From Candidatus Multivoradales bacterium (GTDB lineage Bacteria > Acidobacteriota > Thermoanaerobaculia > Multivoradales > JAHEKO01): a DNA stretch of 64,000 nucleotides. Below are positions 1 through 7,293 of the stretch, in pieces. The DNA lies in assembly GCA_965223855.1 (NCBI GenBank), contig CBDCXM010000009.1, positions 608,001 to 672,000 on the forward strand, read 5' to 3'. A model generated the notes under the pieces. That model had not been told where the DNA came from, did not search any database, and saw nothing but the letters and a program-made list of their open reading frames with translations. A program made the translations under genes and the position numbers. Each line of letters starts with the position of its first letter. Position 1 is the stretch's first letter.

Positions 1-576
1 GATCGCCGCCAGCGAGCCGCCGAAGCGCAGCGCGAGATCGGCGGCCGACGCCCCCACCTCCCCGGCGAGCACCGGCACGAGGACGATCATCGGCACGATC
101 AGGAAGTCCTGGAAGAGCAGGATCCCCAGCACCATGCGCCCCTGGGGCGTCTCGGTCTCGCGCCGGTCGCCGTAGAGCTTGAGCACGATCGCGGTGCTCG
201 ACAGAGCGATGACGAAGCCGAAGAAAATCGCCCGCTCGATCGACAGGCCGAGCGCCAGGCTCGCCCCCGCCACCAGCACCGCCGTCACCCCCACCTGCAG
301 CGTCCCGCCGACGAGGAACGGGCGGCGGAGCTCCCGTAGCTTGGCGAGCGACAGCTCGAGACCGATGACGAACAGCAGCAGCACGACGCCGATCTCGGCG
401 AACACCTCGACATCCTCGGTGTCGGAGACCCAGCCGAGCGCCGACGGGCCGATCAGCACACCGGTCAGGAGCAGCGCGACGACCGGCGGGATCCGCAGTC
501 GCGCCGTGACCAACAGAACGGTGACCGCGCTCGCCAGCAGGACGACGCTTTCCTGAAGCAGGTGTTCCAGGTGCAC
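1..576 (-). CDS. CPA2-family cation:proton antiporter (Kef-like), N-terminal part, runs off the window
   Basis: Manual translation from GTG 576: MHLEHLLQESVVLL...IGPSALG...AEIGVVLLLFVIGLELS...STAIVLK...LFQD, which are CPA2 motifs. Not in the ORF track because it is truncated. Confidence 0.85.
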   Translation of the reverse strand, partial: MHLEHLLQESVVLLASAVTVLLVTARLRIPPVVALLLTGVLIGPSALGWVSDTEDVEVFAEIGVVLLLFVIGLELSLAKLRELRRPFLVGGTLQVGVTAVLVAGASLALGLSIERAIFFGFVIALSSTAIVLKLYGDRRETETPQGRMVLGILLFQDFLIVPMIVLVPVLAGEVGASAADLALRFGGSLAAI

Positions 577-707
577 GGGGGGATTCTACGGGTCGGCTGC
601 CAAGATGCCGTCTCGACTCGAGAACGAACTCACTCCCAACGGAGTCCGGAAGGACAGCACGAGCGTCAGACCCTCGCCCCTCTTGACTTGACCCAGAGTC
701 ACACCAC

Positions 708-736
708 TTGACAACAGCCTTTCGTTCGTCCATACT
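708..736 (+). promoter_or_regulatory. sigma70-type promoter of the retron locus
   Basis: TTGACA (708-713), 17-nt spacer, CATACT (731-736); predicted TSS about 743. Confidence 0.7.
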
Positions 737-742
737 CCCCTC

Positions 743-1145
743 ACTTCGGCCTTTGATTCAAAGGCCCAGATCTTTGAGACGTAGAGAATCTCTCTTGCGA
801 GAGCGATCAGAAGGGGAAGATTCATGGAGCAGCGTCAACGCTGGCGCTGTTCGGGCTCCCGAGCCCTCTTAATGGGGACACATCCCCGCGACCGATTGCG
901 GTCGAAACCTTCCACCACCCCTTGGCTGACTACCTACTGGTCTCGGTCTGACTATTCTCAGATCTAGATCGAATTGGTTCAGTTAGGAGTTGTGAGAGGA
1001 CAACGCGGCGGCAGCTGCGTTTGAAAGACGGGTTAACCAACGCTTCATCCCGGCGAATCTCGATCCAACCTTCTTTTCGGCGGCGGAAGGGCAATGGAGT
1101 CTTTCCGAGATTGCAAGGAGGTTTTCTATGAAAACCAAAGATCTG
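743..1145 (+). ncRNA. Putative retron ncRNA (msr/msd-like structured leader) overlapping the start of the small ORF
   Basis: No credible sense-strand ORF. Hairpins at 748-766, 827-852, 853-866, 874-887, 889-904, 1002-1021 and 1053-1114. Bracketed by the long duplex 767-800/1111-1145. Lies upstream of a retron RT. Confidence 0.7.
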
Positions 1146-1349
1146 TCGCTCGCGCTCGCCAACCTTAGGCGTCTTCGGGCGGAACCGGGATTGGAGTTAG
1201 GTCATCGAAAGGTCCTGAACAAAGCTGAGAGGGAACTGAAAGCAGTAGCGCGATCAGGTAAGCCGCAACCCGACAGGGTATATCGAGCGGTAGAGCTGAT
1301 TTGCGAAGTTGCTCTTGAGGTGCTCTTTCAGTCGACGTCGGTGCGATAG
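1128..1349 (+). CDS. 73-aa basic helical small protein, candidate retron effector/toxin
   Basis: Strong SD AAGGAGG (1115-1121) 6 nt before the ATG; first gene of the retron operon. Confidence 0.75.
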   Translation: MKTKDLSLALANLRRLRAEPGLELGHRKVLNKAERELKAVARSGKPQPDRVYRAVELICEVALEVLFQSTSVR

Positions 1350-1380
1350 ACCAGGTTAACCCGTATTTCCATGAACTTCT

Positions 1381-1689
1381 ATGAACTACGGTAAAGCAAT
1401 AAAGATATGTCGCGCTGCATTCGACCTGAGCCAGGTCGATCTGGCGGCGCACCTATCTATTGGCCCGAGTCAGCTGTCGTTGGTCGAGGCTGGAAAGAGA
1501 CGTCCCAGCACGCGGACGATCGAGGAGATTTGCCAAACCCTTGGAATTCCGCCAGCGCTATTCCATGTACTCGCAGCCGACGGCGACACTCTGCAGTCAC
1601 AATCAAACGAACTAGTTTCCTCCCTTGGTGAGAGCCTTCTGCGGCTTCTGGTTTCCTCCTCATCGTCAACGGGCTCACGGCTCTCATGA
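1381..1689 (+). CDS. XRE/Cro-C1 family helix-turn-helix protein
   Basis: IKICRAAFDLSQVDLAAHLSIGPSQLSLVEAGKRRPS matches the HTH_3 pattern; ATGA overlap with the RT. Confidence 0.9.
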   Translation: MNYGKAIKICRAAFDLSQVDLAAHLSIGPSQLSLVEAGKRRPSTRTIEEICQTLGIPPALFHVLAADGDTLQSQSNELVSSLGESLLRLLVSSSSSTGSRLS

Positions 1690-2564
1690 GGCCGCTTCTT
1701 TCCCTTCGAGATCTTGAGTGGAGACTCGAGATCCCACGTGAAGTACTTCGCAAGATCGCGAGTTCGATTCCGCTGCACTACCATCCTTGGCGAAAGGGAA
1801 ACCGGCTCATCGACAATCCGGACGAGCAGTTGAAGCACATCCAGCGGAGGATCAACTCTCGCCTCCTTGACGAGCTCGACTTGCCACTTCACCTTCACGG
1901 CGGCGTTCGTGGCCGATCACCTCGAACCAACGCACAAGCGCACAGCGCCGCCAAAACTCTCGTACGAATCGATGTAGAGAGGTTCTTTCCAAGCATCACG
2001 AACCGGCACGTGTACGGTGTGTGGCGCGACCAACTCGGAGCAGGCCGAGATGTGGCCAAGCTCCTGACTCAGCTGACGACGTATCGTTTTCGACTCCCGC
2101 AAGGCGCTCCATCAAGCGTAGCGCTAGCGAATCTCGCGCTGGCTCCGATCGAAGATTTCCTCTTGGTGCGTTCTGAGGAACTCAACATCGTTTTCACCCG
2201 TTTCGTTGACGACATCGCGTTGTCCGGGGACTATCCGCAGGAACTTATTCAAGACGTCGTTACGGGGCTTCGCTCGCTCGGCCTACGAAACAACCGCAAG
2301 AAGCTGAATATCATGGGGCCCCAATCGAACCGCCAACTGACCGGGCTCAACACCGAGAGCAGTGGCGGTCCTAGCGTCCCTCTGGAGTACCGAAATGGCC
2401 TGCGGTCAGCGGTCCATCGATATCGGCATTCTCGAGACGGCTCCGAGGAGAAGTCTAAGGCTCTCGACAGACTAAGGGGCCGAATCAACTACGTAAGGCA
2501 GACCAACCCCGGCTCGGCGAGATCACTTGAAGAGCTGCTGGTTGCCGTTGAAGCCCACGCCTGA
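1686..2564 (+). CDS. Retron-type reverse transcriptase (292 aa)
   Basis: Region X NAQAH (NAxxH), DVERFFPSI, LPQGAPSS, catalytic FVDD, region Y QLTGL (VTG-like); no maturase, endonuclease or Cas1 domain. Confidence 0.93.
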   Translation: MRPLLSLRDLEWRLEIPREVLRKIASSIPLHYHPWRKGNRLIDNPDEQLKHIQRRINSRLLDELDLPLHLHGGVRGRSPRTNAQAHSAAKTLVRIDVERFFPSITNRHVYGVWRDQLGAGRDVAKLLTQLTTYRFRLPQGAPSSVALANLALAPIEDFLLVRSEELNIVFTRFVDDIALSGDYPQELIQDVVTGLRSLGLRNNRKKLNIMGPQSNRQLTGLNTESSGGPSVPLEYRNGLRSAVHRYRHSRDGSEEKSKALDRLRGRINYVRQTNPGSARSLEELLVAVEAHA

Positions 2565-2688
2565 GCATAGGTGGGCATCGCCGGTTTAGACCCAGCCGGT
2601 ACCGGCGAATGGACTGGGTCACGGAGTATTCCTCAGCGTCCGGCAGTAACCACCTTTCGCTCAGCTGTCCTGGCCGGTACCATCCCGC

Positions 2689-5600
2689 ATGCTTGATCGT
2701 CAGGTCGAATCAGGCCTGAACGTCTTCCACCCGACGATCGCGCGCTGGTTCACCGAGTCGCTCGGCACACCGACCGACGTCCAGGCGCGCGCGTGGCCGC
2801 GGATCGCCGCCGGGGAGCACCTGCTGGTCAGCGCTCCGACCGGTACCGGCAAGACGCTGACCGCGTTTCTGTGGGCGCTCGACCGGCTGCTCACCGGAGC
2901 GTGGGAGGGCGGGCAGGTGCGGGTGCTCTACGTCTCGCCGCTGAAGGCGCTCAACAACGACGTGCGGCGCAATCTGCTCTCACCGCTGGCGGCGTTGGAG
3001 ACTGCGTTCGAGACCGCCCGAGAGCCCTACGAGCCGGTGGAGGTGATGACCCGCAGCGGCGACACGCCGCAATCGGAGCGCCAGCGGATGGTGCGGCGGC
3101 CGCCGGAGATCCTGATCACGACGCCGGAGAGCCTCAACATCCTGCTCACCTCCAAGGGCGGGCGGTCGATCCTCACCGGGCTCGAGACGGTGATCTTCGA
3201 CGAGATCCACGCCGCCGCCGGGTCGAAGCGCGGCACCCACTGGATCACCGCCGTCGATCGGCTGGTGCCGCTGGCGGGGGAGTTCCAGCGCATCGCGCTC
3301 TCCGCCACGGTGCGGCCGCTCGAGACGGTGGCGCGCTTCGTCGGCGGCTACGAGATGCGGCCACTCGACGACGAGGGACGCGAGGTCGAATACCGCGAGC
3401 GGCCGGTCGGGATCGTCACCTCGGAGCGGGCGAAGGCGTACGACCTCGAGGTCGATCTCGGTGCGCCACAGCTTGCGGACGCGACCGCACCCGGCGGCAC
3501 AGTCCCGGGCACAGGCGAAGCCGGCATCAACGAAGACAAGGAGGAGAATGCCTGGGAGAGCCTCGCCGCCCGCATCGTCGACGTGGTGGCGCGCAACCGC
3601 TCGACGCTGGTGTTCGCCAACTCGCGCCGCACCACCGAGCGGCTGACGCGGCTGATCAACGAGCGCGGGAGCACCACCGGCAACGCCAGTCTCGCCTACT
3701 CCCACCACGGCTCGCTGTCGCGGGAGCTCCGCACGGTGGTCGAGCGCAAACTCAAGAACGGTGAGCTCCGGAGCATCGTCGCCACCAACTCGCTCGAGCT
3801 CGGCATCGACATCGGCTCGCTCGACGAGGTGGTGATGGTGCAGACGCCGCCGACGGTCGCGGCGGCGGTGCAACGGCTCGGGCGCGCCGGCCATCAGGTG
3901 GACGCCGTCTCGCGCGGGCGGCTCTATCCGCTGTTCGAGCGCGACCTGGTGAGCGCTGCCGTGGTCGCCCGCTGCGTGCTCGAAGGGGACATCGAGGAGG
4001 TGCGGCCGATCGAGGGGGCCCTCGACGTGCTCGCGCAGGTGATCCTCTCGATGGTCGCCACCGAGGCGTGGCCGCTCGACCGCCTTTTTCACACCGTGCG
4101 TTCGAGCGCCCCTTACCACCGCCTCAGCCGGCGGCAGTTCGACCTGGTTCTCGAGATGCTCGCCGGCCGCTACGCCGACACCCGGGTGCGGGAGCTGGCG
4201 CCGCGGGTGACGATCGACCGGGTCGAGGGGGTGGTGCACGCGCGCCCCGGGGCGGCGATGAGCGTCTACCTCTCCGGCGGCACGATCCCCGACCGCGGCT
4301 ACTTCGGCCTGCGCACCGTCGACACCATGGCGAAGCTCGGCGAGCTCGACGAGGAGTTCGTCTGGGAGCGCCGGGTCGGCGACACCTTCTCGCTCGGCGC
4401 CCAGAACTGGCGGGTGCGGCGGATCACTTCGAGCGACGTGCTCGTCTCCCCCGCACACCGCTCGGCCGCCATGACCCCGTTCTGGCGTGCCGACGCGCGC
4501 AACCGCAGCTTCTTCCTCTCCGAGCGGCTGGGCACGTTCCTCGAGACAGCCGACGCCCATCTCGAGGAGCCGGGCGGCCGTGAGGCGCTCCTGGCCGCCC
4601 TCACCGAGCGCCACGCGCTGAGCGCCGAGGCCGCCGCCGCGCTGGTCGATCTGCTGGAGCGCCAGCGCGAGGCGACGGGCGGGTCGCTCCCCCATCGGCG
4701 CCATCTGCTGGTCGAGCACGCCGACGACGCCACCGATCAGTCGGGCGGCAGGCGGATGCTGCTGCACACCGGCTGGGGCGGGCGCGTCAACCGGCCGTTC
4801 GCCATCGCGCTGGCGGCGGCGTGGGAGGAGCAGAGCGACCTGCCGCTCCAGATCGAAGCCGAGAACGATGTCGTGCAGATCGTCCTGCCGTCGCCGATGG
4901 CGATCGACGACCTGCTGGCGCTGGTGCGGCCCGACAACATCGAGAGCCTGCTGCGCGCCCGGCTCCAGCGCACCGGCCTCTTCGGCGGCCGATTCCGCGA
5001 GAACGCCGGCCGCGCGCTGCTGCTGCCGCGCTCCGACCTGCGACGCCGGATCCCGCTGTGGCTCACCCGCGAGCGCTCGAAGAAGCTCCTCGAGTCGGTC
5101 GCCGGCCACGAGGACTTCCCCGTCGTCGTCGAGACCTGGCGCACCTGTCTGCAGGACACCTTCGACCTGGAGGCGCTGCGCCAGGTGCTCGATGAGCTCG
5201 ACCGAGGCGAGATCCGCATCACCGAGTGCCGCACGCTCGCACCGTCGCCGTTCGCCGCCGCACTGGTCTGGCAGCAGACCAACCGGCTGATGTACGAGGA
5301 CGACGTGCCGGAAGGGGGCGGCGAGCTCAGCCGCACTCTCCTCCAGGAGCTGGTGTTCTCGTCGCAACTGCGCCCGCGACTCCCGGCCCAGTTGATCGAC
5401 ACGTTCCAGCGCAAGCTCCACCGCACCTTCCCGGGGTACGCGCCGACGACGATCCCGGAGGTCGACGCCTGGATCGGCGAACGGTTGGCGCTGCCGGTCG
5501 AGGAGTTCGAGGCGCTGCTTGCGGCGCGGGCGCGCCAGGTCGGCGACGCCACTACGGCCGAGCTGCTGGAGCTGGTCGATACCGAGGCGTGTGTCGTCAG

Positions 5601-7293
5601 CACGGCCGGCGGCGGGCGCTGGATCTCGGCACTCGAGCGCCTGCCGCGGGTGCTGCGCGGGCTGTCGTTGACTCCCGAAGACGTCGAGCTGACCTCGATC
5701 ACCGACCCTGGAGGGCCGGTGTCCGCGGAGTTCCGCTCCCATCTCGAGGAACTGTGGCAGAGCCGTGAAGATCCGGGCGAGGGCGCCGGGGAGGCGCTAC
5801 GGGCGCTCCTTGCCGAGTGGCTGCGCTTCTACGGCCCGATCCCGCCACGGATGCCGGTCGCGGTCTTCGGGCTCGAGCCCGCGGCGGCGCAGCGCGCGCT
5901 GGCGGCGCTGGTCGACGACGAGACGCTGGTGCTCGACCGCTTCCGCCGCGACGACGATGACGAGGAGCTGTGCGACGCCGAGAATCTGGAACGATTGCTG
6001 CGGGCGCTGCGCGCCCAGGCACGACCGTCGTTTCAGGCGCTACCGCTCGACCATCTGCCGCTGCTGCTGGCCGAGCGTCAGGGGCTTGTTGGCCGCGGCG
6101 ACGGCATCGAGGGGCTGCAGGACGCGCTCGAGGGGTTGCTGCTCTACCCGGCGCCGGCCGGGAGCTGGGAGTCGGATCTGCTGCCGGCGCGCCTCGCCCC
6201 CTACTACCCGGCGTGGCTCGACTCGGTGCTGCTCGAGAGCGACCTGGTGTGGATCGGCTGCGGGCGCGAGCGCACGACCTTCACCTTCGCCGAGGAGCGC
6301 GAGCTGCTGGCGGAAGCGCCGATCGACGAGGACCTCGCCGGAGAGCTGCCGCCGGAGATCGACGAGGCGTTCGCCTTCGGCCGCCGCCGGGCGTTCGAGG
6401 AGCTGGTGCGCTCGCAAGATGCACCGGCGGCCGACCTGGCGGCGAAGCTCTGGCGCGCGGCGTGGCGCGGCGAGCTGTCGAACACCACCTTCTCGGTGGT
6501 GCGCCAGGGAGTACTCCAGCGTTTCAAGCCAGCGGCAGCGGCGGAGCGGCGTCCTCCGAGGCCCGGCGGCCGGGGCAGCCGCTCCGCCGTCGGCCGACGC
6601 GCCTTCGATCGCTGGAAGTCGGCGCGTCCCTCGGGCGGCGACTGGTTCCGGCTCGACCCGGTCGCCGCGCCCGAGGACCCGCTGGCGGCCGAAGACCTCG
6701 AGCGCGACCGCGCCCGGTTGCTGCTGTCGCGCTACGGCATCCTCTTCCGCGAGCTGCTCGACCGCGAGCTGCCGAGCTTCCAGTGGTCTCGGATCTTCCG
6801 CGCCCTCAGACTGATGGAGCTCTCGGGCGAGGTGGTGGCGGGGCAGTTCTTCGAGGGAATCCACGGCCCGCAGTTCGTCTCGCGCTCGACCTGGCGGCGG
6901 CTCTCCGAGGGACTCGGCCAGGGGGAGGTCTACTGGGTCAGCGCAATCGACCCGGCGGCGCCGTCGGGGATCGCTCTCGACGAGTGGCGCGAGCGCTGGC
7001 TGCCACGCCGCTCGTCGAACCACCTGGTGTTCGAGGGGACGCGGCCGGTGGTCCTTTCGCGCCGCCACGCCGCCGAGCTCGACATCACGGTGCGCCCCGA
7101 CCACCCGAAGCTGCCCGAGTATCTCGGCTTCCTGAAGGTGCTCCTGACGCGCGACGCTCAGCCACGCAAGGCGATCGACATCGAGACGATCAACGGCGAG
7201 CCGGCCAAGCGGAGCGCCTTCGCCGGCCCGCTGGGAGAACTCTTCAGCACCACCCGCGAGGCGAAGAGCCTGCGGCTGCGCCGGCGCTACTGA
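2689..7293 (+). CDS. lhr: Lhr family ATP-dependent helicase (full-length, 1534 aa)
   Basis: APTGTGKT, YVSPLKAL, TTPESL, DEIH, SAT, HHGSLS, SLELGIDIG, QRLGRAGH, GGTIPDRG and the Lhr C-terminal region. Confidence 0.93.
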   Translation: MLDRQVESGLNVFHPTIARWFTESLGTPTDVQARAWPRIAAGEHLLVSAPTGTGKTLTAFLWALDRLLTGAWEGGQVRVLYVSPLKALNNDVRRNLLSPLAALETAFETAREPYEPVEVMTRSGDTPQSERQRMVRRPPEILITTPESLNILLTSKGGRSILTGLETVIFDEIHAAAGSKRGTHWITAVDRLVPLAGEFQRIALSATVRPLETVARFVGGYEMRPLDDEGREVEYRERPVGIVTSERAKAYDLEVDLGAPQLADATAPGGTVPGTGEAGINEDKEENAWESLAARIVDVVARNRSTLVFANSRRTTERLTRLINERGSTTGNASLAYSHHGSLSRELRTVVERKLKNGELRSIVATNSLELGIDIGSLDEVVMVQTPPTVAAAVQRLGRAGHQVDAVSRGRLYPLFERDLVSAAVVARCVLEGDIEEVRPIEGALDVLAQVILSMVATEAWPLDRLFHTVRSSAPYHRLSRRQFDLVLEMLAGRYADTRVRELAPRVTIDRVEGVVHARPGAAMSVYLSGGTIPDRGYFGLRTVDTMAKLGELDEEFVWERRVGDTFSLGAQNWRVRRITSSDVLVSPAHRSAAMTPFWRADARNRSFFLSERLGTFLETADAHLEEPGGREALLAALTERHALSAEAAAALVDLLERQREATGGSLPHRRHLLVEHADDATDQSGGRRMLLHTGWGGRVNRPFAIALAAAWEEQSDLPLQIEAENDVVQIVLPSPMAIDDLLALVRPDNIESLLRARLQRTGLFGGRFRENAGRALLLPRSDLRRRIPLWLTRERSKKLLESVAGHEDFPVVVETWRTCLQDTFDLEALRQVLDELDRGEIRITECRTLAPSPFAAALVWQQTNRLMYEDDVPEGGGELSRTLLQELVFSSQLRPRLPAQLIDTFQRKLHRTFPGYAPTTIPEVDAWIGERLALPVEEFEALLAARARQVGDATTAELLELVDTEACVVSTAGGGRWISALERLPRVLRGLSLTPEDVELTSITDPGGPVSAEFRSHLEELWQSREDPGEGAGEALRALLAEWLRFYGPIPPRMPVAVFGLEPAAAQRALAALVDDETLVLDRFRRDDDDEELCDAENLERLLRALRAQARPSFQALPLDHLPLLLAERQGLVGRGDGIEGLQDALEGLLLYPAPAGSWESDLLPARLAPYYPAWLDSVLLESDLVWIGCGRERTTFTFAEERELLAEAPIDEDLAGELPPEIDEAFAFGRRRAFEELVRSQDAPAADLAAKLWRAAWRGELSNTTFSVVRQGVLQRFKPAAAAERRPPRPGGRGSRSAVGRRAFDRWKSARPSGGDWFRLDPVAAPEDPLAAEDLERDRARLLLSRYGILFRELLDRELPSFQWSRIFRALRLMELSGEVVAGQFFEGIHGPQFVSRSTWRRLSEGLGQGEVYWVSAIDPAAPSGIALDEWRERWLPRRSSNHLVFEGTRPVVLSRRHAAELDITVRPDHPKLPEYLGFLKVLLTRDAQPRKAIDIETINGEPAKRSAFAGPLGELFSTTREAKSLRLRRRY

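Follow-up and report, generated by a model that had tools for sequence, protein, structure and literature searches.

Canonical retrons such as Ec86 carry inverted repeats at the ends of the msr-msd region and an unpaired G between a1 and the first msr hairpin; their a1/a2 stem comprises roughly 7 to 15 bp, and their msDNA acts as an antitoxin. In type I toxin mRNAs like hok and tisB, long-range 5'-3' pairing blocks translation until processing or refolding takes place. The described systems closest to the locus reported here are Retron-Vpa2 and Retron-Sen3. Retron-Vpa2, from Vibrio parahaemolyticus, is a type VI retron with a hyRNA, in which deletion of the noncoding part causes toxicity and the small protein (SP) is translationally repressed (Zhang et al. 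2025, bioRxiv 10.1101/2025.10.22.683967). According to the same preprint, SP translation requires msDNA, msDNA provided in trans is sufficient, and direct repeats are linked to msDNA-dependent release; the Vpa2 set described there comprises 81 loci. In Retron-Sen3, the ribosome binding site (RBS) lies hidden in the basal stem and both SP and ssDNA are constitutive, and cl2075 has been described chiefly in Beta- and Gammaproteobacteria (Garcia-Rodriguez et al. 2026, bioRxiv 10.64898/2026.04.27.721009). A translational lock freed by reverse transcription and RBS sequestration by a basal stem are thus already published for Vpa2 and Sen3, respectively, and the finding described below opens no new category.

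In a stretch of DNA of 64,000 nucleotides (the window, to which all coordinates refer; all features lie on the + strand), a low-GC island of 2 kb carries a locus with the gene order promoter, structured RNA, SP, helix-turn-helix (HTH) protein, and reverse transcriptase (RT). By the scheme of Mestre et al. 2020 in its PADLOC-DB form, this locus is a type VI retron. The RT (1686 to 2564) matches Pfam RVT_1 and, as the top of 68 PADLOC models, RT_VI (1e-64, 216.5 bits; runner-up, 159.8 bits); its match to the NCBIfam retron St85 RT model (1.2e-42) lies under the cut-off of that model. The Cro/C1-type HTH protein (1381 to 1689), whose stop shares a 4-nt overlap with the RT start, matches PADLOC HTH_VI (9.5e-19) and Pfam HTH_3 (1.9e-11). 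Upstream of the HTH gene, where a subset of type VI systems has an accessory gene, lies the ORF for an SP of 73 amino acids (1128 to 1349), a small helical protein with a hydrophobic C terminus (Kyte-Doolittle hydropathy of 1 to 2 across residues 50 to 66). Searches of this SP against Pfam, PADLOC, and NCBIfam gave no match above cut-offs, and a profile of the SP family searched against the PDB retrieved designed helical proteins only. By analogy to Vpa2 and Sen3, SP is a putative toxic effector.

A first-pass annotation of the window had proposed a long-range RNA duplex between the leader and the SP start, and its coordinates proved exact: nucleotides 767 to 800 pair with 1111 to 1145 in 30 bp, of which 26 are Watson-Crick and four are G-U pairs, with 0 mismatches. 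Helix H1 joins its 5' arm, 767 to 776 (CAGATCTTTG, including a TCTTT motif invariant in 26/26 aligned loci), to 1136 to 1145 (CAAAGATCTG) in a perfect run of 10 bp. Helix H2, whose 5' arm (780 to 800) acts as anti-AUG, anti-spacer, and anti-SD (SD, Shine-Dalgarno) and, in relatives, co-varies with the SD-AUG region, consists of 780-792/1118-1130 (13 bp), a bulged U793, and 794-800/1111-1117 (7 bp); the G-U pairs are 781:1129, 786:1124, 789:1121, and 799:1112. The common 3' arm of H2 and H1 (1111 to 1145) holds the SD GGAGG (1117 to 1121), the AUG (1128 to 1130), and codons 4 to 6 of the 73-amino-acid ORF, all of which are covered by the duplex, in line with the annotated burial of the start site; codons 2 and 3 are unpaired in an internal loop (777-779/1131-1135). 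All RNA structures given here are thermodynamic predictions. The isolated arms reach -37.5 kcal/mol, and the minimum free energy (MFE) structure of 755 to 1160 contains the duplex (-174 kcal/mol, z of -5.6, 0/100 shuffles). The MFE structures of transcripts running from 743 to 1150, 1250, 1349, or 1369 each include 30/30 duplex pairs.

Just upstream of the 5' arm, a predicted sigma-70-like promoter (TTGACA, 17 nt, CATACT; 10/12 matches) is located at 708 to 736. It is the sole match between 560 and 2700 and predicts a transcription start site (TSS) at ~743, which agrees with the earlier placement of the 5' arm just past the TSS. A promoter match of at least 8/12 is conserved in 25/30 related loci, and in 23 of those 25 the end of the -10 hexamer lies 33 to 43 nt before the invariant TCTTT. 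On the + strand between 737 and 1677, no promoter-like or terminator-like site was found.

Among loci that carry this SP family, 25 relatives from metagenomes and 6 loci from genomes likewise pair the 5' arm with the SD-AUG region. The first-pass annotation had named covariation across homologous loci as a check, and it was found: for whole arms from 30 loci, which are not independent of each other, cognate combinations reached -32.6 kcal/mol versus -24.9 kcal/mol for non-cognate ones (0/10,000 permutations), and for the H2 segments alone the values were -19.3 and -14.6 kcal/mol (0/10,000 permutations). In pair counts derived from the energy-optimised duplex, each spacer position from -8 to -1 pairs in 19 to 26 of 30 loci, with 4 to 6 pair types. 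For H1, 80% of the alignment cells are paired versus ~40% when the arms are slid, and 4/10 pairs are compensatory. At a threshold of more than 50% pairing, the 5' arm engages the SD or the AUG in 22/26 loci and the SD itself in only 11/26, and the SD is paired to any partner in 25/26; by the same threshold, full-length folds keep the start region (-13 to +2) bound by the 5' arm in only 4/26. Burial is most complete in the window, where its probability is 1.0 at the SD and 0.99 at the AUG. When the 50-nt start region was searched loosely for duplexes with ~420 nt of upstream sequence (20 shuffles), the relatives were not separated from shuffles (z of +1.0 to -3.7), with only the window standing out at -7.3; this search was replaced by the anchored segments and the cognate/non-cognate tests. 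RNAalifold applied to a MAFFT alignment recovered four local hairpins only.

The annotation had equated the duplex with the retron a1/a2 stem. Its assignment to a retron holds, with the duplex as the probable outer basal stem, but the duplex is not the whole stem, which continues past 800 with 804-806/1077-1079, 809-814/1069-1074, 815-817/1064-1066, and 818-823/1055-1060. This inner basal stem (5' strand 804 to 823, pairing with 1055 to 1079 in helices of 3, 6, 3, and 6 bp; the 3' strand, 1055 to 1079, includes a local anti-SD at 1067 to 1075) was predicted for the sequence of the window alone. It is followed by an unpaired AUG at 824 to 826, directly 5' of hairpin 827-852, and in most relatives this place is taken by a YCAAG|C or UCAUG motif. 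Since the stem extends to 823/1055 and the motif of the relatives sits here, G826 appears to be a better candidate for the branching G than the annotated G801, and we infer it to be the best one. Other candidate branching Gs are G801/G803 and G813. Four msr-like hairpins (827-852, 853-866, 874-887, and 889-904) span 827 to 904 and occur in the same order in alignment A2 of relatives, with a conserved UUAAUGG linker. The putative msd, i.e., the template, would extend from 905 to 1054, as judged from the position of the stem, and comprises a long stem (908 to 999), a hairpin (1002 to 1021), and an inverted repeat arm, IR1 (1023 to 1038). Between the inner stem and the duplex, the segment 1080 to 1107 contains a "riboregulator" hairpin (1084 to 1107) just 5' of the SD, which is conserved in the relatives (alignment columns 513-517/541-545). 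Immediately 5' of the basal stem lies a further hairpin (748 to 766, GGCCTTTG / CAAAGGCC), whose counterpart in alignment A2 is 95% paired with 6/7 compensatory pairs. The terminal inverted repeats resemble those of a canonical retron, and the candidate G826 would fit the place of the branching G both structurally and by the motif of the relatives. Unlike in canonical retrons, the stem measures ~48 bp, and its 3' strand includes an inserted hairpin as well as the site where translation of the downstream effector gene starts.

IR1 and its partner IR2 (1354 to 1369) form an inverted repeat (16 nt, 94%) that would close a loop around the SP gene. In the equilibrium fold of 743 to 1395, this IR1-IR2 conformer is better than the basal-stem conformer by 1.4 kcal/mol (-269.7 versus -268.3 kcal/mol), the MFE structure contains 0/30 duplex pairs, and the probability of H2, P(H2), is 0.03. 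Here, the anti-SD at 1067 to 1075 is predicted to pair with 1115 to 1123, and 815 to 826 with 1370 to 1380. The predicted unpaired fraction of the SD is at most 0.08 in both conformers, and that of the AUG is 0.5 in the IR1-IR2 conformer. In relatives, a similar pairing spans the SP stop codon; its probability exceeds 0.5 in 13/26 full-length loci, and it excludes the basal stem, both being above 0.3 in only 1/26. A search for the IR1/IR2 duplex in relatives gave z values of -2 or lower in only 10/26 loci. As the full transcript favors the IR1-IR2 conformer at equilibrium, a lock by the basal stem needs co-transcriptional trapping, which we assume.

The heptamer GCGGCGG is present twice, as direct repeat DR1 (1005 to 1011) in the msd hairpin and as DR2 (1080 to 1086) beside the SD hairpin. 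A substring shared by DR1 and DR2 measures 7 nt or more in 22/26 cognate loci versus 195/650 non-cognate pairs, and 0/10,000 permutations reached this cognate excess. Blocking DR2 in silico in the IR1-IR2 conformer raised the unpaired fraction of the SD from 0.07 to 0.43 (control block, 0.03), and with DR2 blocked in the basal-stem conformer the SD stayed shut (0.00 unpaired). A role of DR2 as an exposed toehold is not supported by its unpaired fraction, which is 0.29 versus 0.34 overall.

The locus shares the SP-HTH-RT operon with Vpa2, as well as a single predicted structured RNA that would combine msr-msd and the SP coding sequence, a small SP with a hydrophobic C terminus, and the features of the Vpa2-type lock as described in the preprint, namely, a sequestered SD and start codon, an inverted repeat past SP through which the 3' end would anneal back onto the noncoding RNA, and a pair of ~7-nt direct repeats, one within an msd hairpin, the other adjoining the SD hairpin. 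It differs in that the RBS and AUG of Vpa2 lie in local stem-loops of the second arm, whereas here a long-range stem of 30 bp with the 5' end, predicted as the first-formed fold, contains them. Furthermore, the SP has 73 amino acids instead of 55, and the direct repeats keep their places but differ in sequence from locus to locus, while their sequence is described as conserved in the Vpa2 set. With Sen3 and cl2075, as far as described, it has in common the RBS in the basal stem, the hairpin 5' of the inverted repeat (here 748-766), IR1-IR2 around SP as an alternative fold that shifts the RBS to a local stem, and pairing of the pre-HTH region with sequence near the 5' end (here 815-826/1370-1380). 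Unlike in Sen3, the AUG and codons 4 to 6 are also buried. Like hok and tisB, the locus pairs the toxin start region with a distant part of its own transcript; in contrast to these, it has no antisense RNA antitoxin, and the proposed releaser is ssDNA reverse transcribed from the same RNA.

Taken together, the duplex likely represents the outer basal stem of a type VI hybrid RNA and serves as a lock with Vpa2-like release by msDNA. The hybrid RNA, consisting of msr-msd and the toxin mRNA, would be transcribed from ~743, and its 5' strand (767 to 823) would zip onto 1055 to 1145 once the latter is synthesised. The inner stem 804-823/1055-1079 would act as an a1/a2-like helix and position an unpaired G, most likely G826, to prime the RT on the msd (~905 to 1054). 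The outer 30 bp would carry the same stem across the SD, the AUG, and codons 4 to 6 of SP; with SD and AUG buried in this way, the toxin message should be translationally off in the RT-competent fold. Once the complete SP gene is transcribed, the mutually exclusive IR1-IR2 pairing would become possible, in which the SD is held only by the 9-bp local anti-SD helix. As in Retron-Vpa2, phage infection might lead to accumulation of msDNA and release of SP translation, probably via pairing of the msDNA copy of DR1 with DR2 beside the SD hairpin, and the HTH protein may restrain the system. The annotation's suggestion that reverse transcription turns the toxin on, rather than msDNA acting as an antitoxin, is sound by analogy and not new, since the Vpa2 experiments already demonstrate this inverted logic (bioRxiv 10.1101/2025.10.22.683967).

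We also considered whether the duplex arose by chance as an inverted repeat or acts at the DNA level, for example as an operator of the HTH protein or a recombination site. By our estimate, a lone perfect inverted repeat of 10 nt is no rarity in 700 nt (~0.2 expected), but shuffling the 3' arm (n = 1000) gave a mean of -10.4 and a best value of -26.0 kcal/mol, other 35-nt windows across the 64 kb reached -32.2 kcal/mol at best, and 0/1000 shuffles and 0/12,746 windows matched the duplex energy. On the minus strand, where the four G-U pairs become A-C mismatches, the same arms reach only -26.6 versus -37.5 kcal/mol, in agreement with the original argument that the wobble positions point to pairing of + strand RNA. 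With the arms 310 to 359 nt apart and their pairing co-varying in relatives, such an origin is almost certainly not the explanation. Another scenario, which follows the first-pass annotation, takes the 30-bp duplex as the entire a1/a2 stem, with branching at G801 or G803, a template starting from 1110, and cDNA synthesis together with RNase H digestion of the enclosed RNA opening the lock in cis. It could draw on the unpaired G801 to G803 past the duplex and on the AGC at 802 to 804, a triplet typical of branching G sites; msDNA starting from 1110 would, moreover, hold an SD-like stretch that might titrate the anti-SD at 1067 to 1075. Against this, the predicted stem reaches 823/1055, and the pre-msr motif of the relatives follows the inner helix and not the SD-pairing helix. 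The duplex arms also lie outside any template, and when 905 to 1054 was removed or blocked in silico, P(H2) was 1.0 and the SD 0.00 unpaired, so that the lock is predicted to stay shut rather than to open by removal of the enclosed region. Neither a branch G nor RNase H is named in the main text of the two preprints. We therefore regard this scenario as highly improbable.

The Sen3 findings raise a different alternative, because an RBS in the basal stem of Sen3 coexists with constitutive SP and ssDNA (bioRxiv 10.64898/2026.04.27.721009), and sequestration alone is accordingly no proof of translational control. The stem would then serve structure and priming only, SP would be made constitutively, for instance through stem breathing or translation of the IR1-IR2 conformer, and control would be post-translational, with the HTH protein neutralising SP until a phage cue frees it; burial of the SD would simply result from the SP gene being packed against a2. 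The hairpin 5' of the inverted repeat, the IR1-IR2 pair around SP, and the equilibrium preference for a full-transcript conformer with the AUG half unpaired would fit such a regime. However, the window shows the most complete burial of all 26 loci, the SD is predicted to be closed whichever conformer forms, and DR1 and DR2 co-vary, a feature that Zhang et al. link to msDNA-dependent release; we thus consider constitutive SP production unlikely at this locus. It is conceivable, although we propose this only tentatively, that the hybrid RNA works as a two-state device that is set kinetically and has its own msDNA as a private key. The basal stem would form first as the RT-competent, fully locked state, and the IR1-IR2 fold would be the RT-incompetent, weakly locked, and sole openable state. 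The key would be the lineage-specific repeat of 7 to 9 nt, with the DR1 copy pairing onto DR2, and since the repeat co-varies between loci, each retron would read its own msDNA alone, and the key-lock pairs would be orthogonal. Once its msd template is degraded, the copied RNA would be driven back to the locked state, so that the response would be self-limiting. The available text of the Vpa2 and Sen3 preprints states neither co-variation of the repeat by sequence nor re-locking.

For the published models, natural co-variation at these loci backs the SD-burying stem, the inverted repeat pair around the toxin gene, and the direct repeats. Because burial is most complete in the window, this locus is a clean candidate for asking whether burial means repression, as in Vpa2, or not, as in Sen3, and it could likewise serve to map the branch point of a type VI retron.

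Furthermore, we analyzed the distribution of this family. No relative was found by an RT-only scan of genome contigs (a later scan of genome contigs was built on an 11-sequence alignment), a word-based search with SP matched only itself, Rfam gave nothing at an E value of 10 or lower for positions 1 to 3000 of the window, and a phage search gave no match. A plasmid search returned 7 records with 29 to 32% identity and, like the phage search, was uninformative. Of the sequencing runs on record, none listed as RNA contains this stretch; the four that do contain it come from one study and are present as assembled contigs. Among same-phylum genomes, 10/401 contain an RT match at an E value of 1e-20 or lower, the best being only 40% identical, and the closest RTs (60, 56, and 55% identical) are known as protein records only. 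Searching 1.84 billion proteins with SP yielded 35 representatives at an E value of 1e-3 or lower, the SP family HMM matches 41/170 fetched RT loci, and 33 other metagenomic loci have an SP homolog in the equivalent position. The relatives stem from contigs of soil metagenomes, Acidobacteriota MAGs, and a single gammaproteobacterial MAG, a host range that differs from the mainly beta- and gammaproteobacterial one reported for cl2075. In a tree of 137 RTs, all 34 with the SP family at their locus fall into one subtree of 50 RTs. The type VI design, with a toxin message inside the RT template RNA that is held untranslatable, hence extends past the Vibrio and enterobacterial systems to a separate RT/SP clade of soil metagenomes and Acidobacteriota MAGs.

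The retron operon on the forward strand starts with SP (73 aa, 1128-1349), the small protein and putative toxic effector. It is followed by a Cro/C1 helix-turn-helix (HTH) protein of 102 aa (1381-1689), matching PADLOC HTH_VI (9.5e-19) and Pfam HTH_3, and by a reverse transcriptase (RT) of 292 aa (1686-2564), whose start overlaps the HTH stop by 4 nt and which matches PADLOC RT_VI (1e-64) and Pfam RVT_1. RT_VI scored 216.5 bits and the next PADLOC model 159.8 bits. Judged by the RT_VI and HTH_VI matches, the locus is a type VI retron. SP had no match among the curated families of Pfam, PADLOC and NCBIfam, and a PDB profile search returned designed helical proteins only; its C terminus is hydrophobic, like that of published SPs (KD 1-2 over residues 50-66). 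The retron occupies about 2 kb (600-2600) at 52-59% G+C between genes at 69-73% G+C, namely, a Na+/H+ exchanger gene (1-576, reverse strand) and an Lhr helicase gene (2689-7293). The stretch looks like a horizontally acquired cassette; no tRNA gene was found near the retron, and a repeat search of 700-1400 only revealed no repeats flanking the island.

Close inspection confirmed a long-range duplex at the SP start, with the arms where the first-pass annotation had placed them. Positions 767-776 and 1136-1145 are complementary at every base (pairing H1; inverted-repeat pair I2), and 780-800 pairs with 1111-1130 over 20 bp with U793 bulged (H2). A script counted 30 pairs (26 Watson-Crick and 4 G-U) and no mismatch; as had been claimed, all non-Watson-Crick positions are G-U, at exactly 781, 786, 789 and 799. 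The two arms alone have a duplex energy of -37.5 kcal/mol, which was reached by none of 1,000 shuffles of the 3' arm (best, -26.0) and none of 12,746 other windows of 35 nt taken across the 64 kb (best, -32.2). The same arms on the opposite strand yield only -26.6 kcal/mol, so that the G-U argument for pairing of plus-strand RNA, rather than DNA, holds. The Shine-Dalgarno (SD) sequence GGAGG (1117-1121), the SP AUG (1128-1130) and codons 4 to 6 of the ORF at 1128-1349, all on the plus strand, lie inside the 3' arm and are thus buried as proposed, with codons 2 and 3 lying in an internal loop. The minimum-energy fold of 755-1160 includes the 30-bp duplex (-174 kcal/mol, z = -5.6). The sole sigma-70-like promoter match in 560-2700 (TTGACA-17-CATACT, 708-736, plus strand) predicts a transcription start site near 743, 24 nt ahead of the 5' arm (767-800), in agreement with the proposed position of that arm just past the start site; an 8-bp hairpin (748-766, plus strand) fills the gap.

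In the fold of 743-1150, pairing runs on past 800 through helices 804-806/1077-1079, 809-814/1069-1074, 815-817/1064-1066 and 818-823/1055-1060; a 9-bp hairpin (1084-1107) interrupts the 3' strand. A824, U825 and G826 are unpaired and are followed by four msr-like hairpins (827-904), a long stem (908-999) and a small hairpin (1002-1021). We read the duplex as the outer 30 bp of a predicted basal stem of about 48 bp. Its interpretation as the retron a1/a2 stem stands insofar as it is part of the basal stem; the stem itself is longer than proposed and reaches 823/1055 in the fold. The proposed branch point, G801, fits less well, as the stem goes on past 800. The best candidate in this model is G826, which is unpaired, follows the inner helix and lies directly 5' of the first msr hairpin; a motif stands at the equivalent place in most relatives, YCAAG|C or, in one subgroup, UCAUG. 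G801 or G803 would be a possible branch point because 802-804 reads AGC.

The closest RTs (60, 56 and 55% identical) are known as protein records only. Relatives were therefore collected from metagenome contigs, pattern-scanned with an alignment of 35 RTs (80 loci), and from genomes scanned with 11 RTs (80 further loci), where the best RTs, from Acidobacteriota MAGs and one gammaproteobacterial MAG, were 38-39% identical. Among the first 90 loci, phmmer detected an SP homolog directly 5' of the HTH-RT pair in 33 besides the window; after removal of 6 duplicates and of 2 loci whose upstream DNA was too short, 26 loci remained, the window included (alignment A2). The SP-family HMM matches 41 of 170 loci, and a full HMMER scan of 1.84 billion representatives yielded 35 SP-family proteins at E ≤ 1e-3, including the query. 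In a tree of 137 RTs, all 34 with an SP-family neighbor fall within one 50-row subtree (SH-aLRT 85), and this label changes 13 times versus 30.4 times in shuffles; many of the subtree's 16 unlabeled rows come from contigs that end shortly before the RT. In the accessible portions of the published type VI retron texts, this RT/SP clade is apparently unstudied.

Anchored duplex folding recovered a two-part design in every locus, in which H1 joins a TCTTT region to SP codons 4 to 6 and H2 joins the variable segment after TCTTT to the SD-spacer-AUG region. In each of the 26 loci an SD-like core lies 9-12 nt 5' of the aligned start codon, and an invariant TCTTT is present about 290-390 nt upstream. 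In partition-function folds of transcripts that stop 24 nt inside SP, pairing to the 5' arm exceeds 50% for the SD or AUG in 22 of 26 loci (SD in 11, AUG in 16), and pairing of the SD to any partner exceeds 50% in 25; the window is the extreme (1.0 and 0.99). The arms also co-vary between homologous loci, as expected of a selected RNA duplex under the first-pass annotation: cognate whole arms from 30 loci average -32.6 kcal/mol versus -24.9 for non-cognate ones, and cognate H2 segments -19.3 versus -14.6 (0/10,000 permutations each), with the cognate H2 best in its row in 8/26. The 5' H2 segments of the 30 loci are only 32% identical to one another. At each spacer position from -8 to -1 relative to the AUG, between 19 and 26 of the 30 loci show pairing, by 4-6 pair types; this table rests on optimized duplexes and is biased towards pairing. 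Within A2, H1 is 80% paired versus about 40% with the partner slid (4/10 pairs compensatory), and the 5' hairpin is 95% paired (6/7 compensatory). Six further loci from the genome scan and a same-phylum genome, not used in defining these features, have the same arrangement in weaker form (AUG-5' arm pairing probability, 0.06-0.99). The promoter scores 8/12 or better in 25/30 loci, and in 23 of those 25 the -10 hexamer ends 33-43 nt 5' of TCTTT. Two less telling results speak against conservation: a loose duplex search did not separate relatives from shuffles, and RNAalifold on a MAFFT alignment recovered local hairpins only. TCTTT (771-775; A2 columns 83-87) is invariant in 26/26 even though its partner codes SP codons 4 to 6 (K-D/E-L), which suggests either that it does more than pair, e.g., is recognized by a protein, or that RNA structure and protein sequence constrain it jointly.

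An alternative fold is offered by IR1 (1023-1038, 16 nt) and IR2 (1354-1369, just past the SP stop), which are 94% complementary. Their pairing crosses the basal stem, so that the two are mutually exclusive unless a pseudoknot forms. For 743-1395 the two folds differ little in energy (-268.3 kcal/mol when the stem is imposed versus -269.7 with IR1-IR2), and transcripts ending at or before 1369 keep 30/30 stem pairs. With IR1-IR2 formed, the SD pairs locally with 1067-1075 over 9 bp. Relatives typically pair CTGAATCACTC with GAGTGATTCAG across the SP stop, with variants (z ≤ -2 in 10/26). In full-length folds the IR-equivalent pair exceeds 0.5 in 13/26 and pairing of the 5' arm with the start region in 4/26; both exceed 0.3 in only 1/26.

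We propose that the basal stem would form first during transcription and serve as both the retron priming stem and a lock on SP translation. Release by RNase H, as originally suggested, is not borne out by thermodynamic prediction: with the putative msd (905-1054) blocked or removed, the stem stays shut (P = 1.0, SD 0.00 unpaired) because IR1 is lost. Pairing of msDNA to a direct repeat could be another route. GCGGCGG occurs as DR1 (1005-1011) in the small msd hairpin and as DR2 (1080-1086) at the base of the pre-SD hairpin. At these places 22/26 loci have a common substring of at least 7 nt that differs in sequence between loci, as against 195/650 non-cognate pairs, and the cognate mean was matched in 0/10,000 permutations. 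When DR2 is blocked to mimic pairing with msDNA, the predicted unpaired fraction of the SD in the IR1-IR2 conformer rises from 0.07 to 0.43 (control block, 0.03), with no effect on the SD in the basal-stem conformer; predicted accessibility did not mark DR2 as a specially exposed site.

The mechanism proposed in the first-pass annotation is already in print, as are the 5' hairpin, the RBS burial and the IR pair, to judge from the available text of two preprints. In Retron-Vpa2 (Zhang et al., bioRxiv 10.1101/2025.10.22.683967), a hybrid RNA carries msr-msd and the SP coding sequence, its 3' end anneals back onto the first arm, the RBS and start codon are sequestered, and deletion of the non-coding part is toxic. 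Its msDNA, undetectable at rest, accumulates with phage triggers or without HTH, and is necessary, and in trans sufficient, for SP translation; a 7-nt direct repeat was proposed to allow msDNA-riboregulator pairing. In the Retron-Sen3/cl2075 lineage (Garcia-Rodriguez et al., bioRxiv 10.64898/2026.04.27.721009), the RBS sits within the basal stem, and SP lies between IR1 and IR2, whose pairing creates an alternative fold; ssDNA and SP are nevertheless constitutive, and the HTH protein serves as the antitoxin. The main text of neither names a branching G or RNase H. The earlier interpretation is partly supported, and its core, a translational lock released by reverse transcription, is already known; G801 is the less likely branch point, and RNase H release was not supported. 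The complete burial and the co-varying repeats point, though not decisively, to a Vpa2-like regime of inducible translation rather than a Sen3-like one with constitutive SP restrained by HTH. In the window locus the start region is buried to an unusual degree, and among its relatives the lock, the IR pair and the direct repeats all co-vary naturally.

Further repeats lie around the HTH start. The 9-mer TTCTATGAA at the SP start codon (1124-1132) recurs at the HTH start codon (1377-1385), so that the 5' arm could also pair there over about 7 bp; a variant, TTCCATGAA, lies at 1367-1375, 10 nt before the latter copy. No clear SD precedes the HTH AUG. ATGAACT occurs twice, 10 nt apart (1371-1394), and the first copy opens an out-of-frame 7-codon mini-ORF (ATG 1371, TAA 1392-1394) overlapping the HTH start at 1381. 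In the IR1-IR2 fold of 743-1395, the inner 5' stem strand with candidate branch G826 (815-826) pairs with 1370-1380, the 11 nt directly before the HTH start, which is similar to a pairing mentioned in print between the HTH RBS and a region close to the 5' end. A direct repeat, AGAGCGATCAG (800-810) and AGCGCGATCAG (1247-1257), links the 5' arm region with SP codons for the conserved ARSG motif and may be due to chance. AATGG is found in the conserved linker UUAAUGG between msr hairpins 2 and 3 (871-877) and again in the loop of the pre-SD hairpin (1093-1099), both places being conserved in the family consensus.
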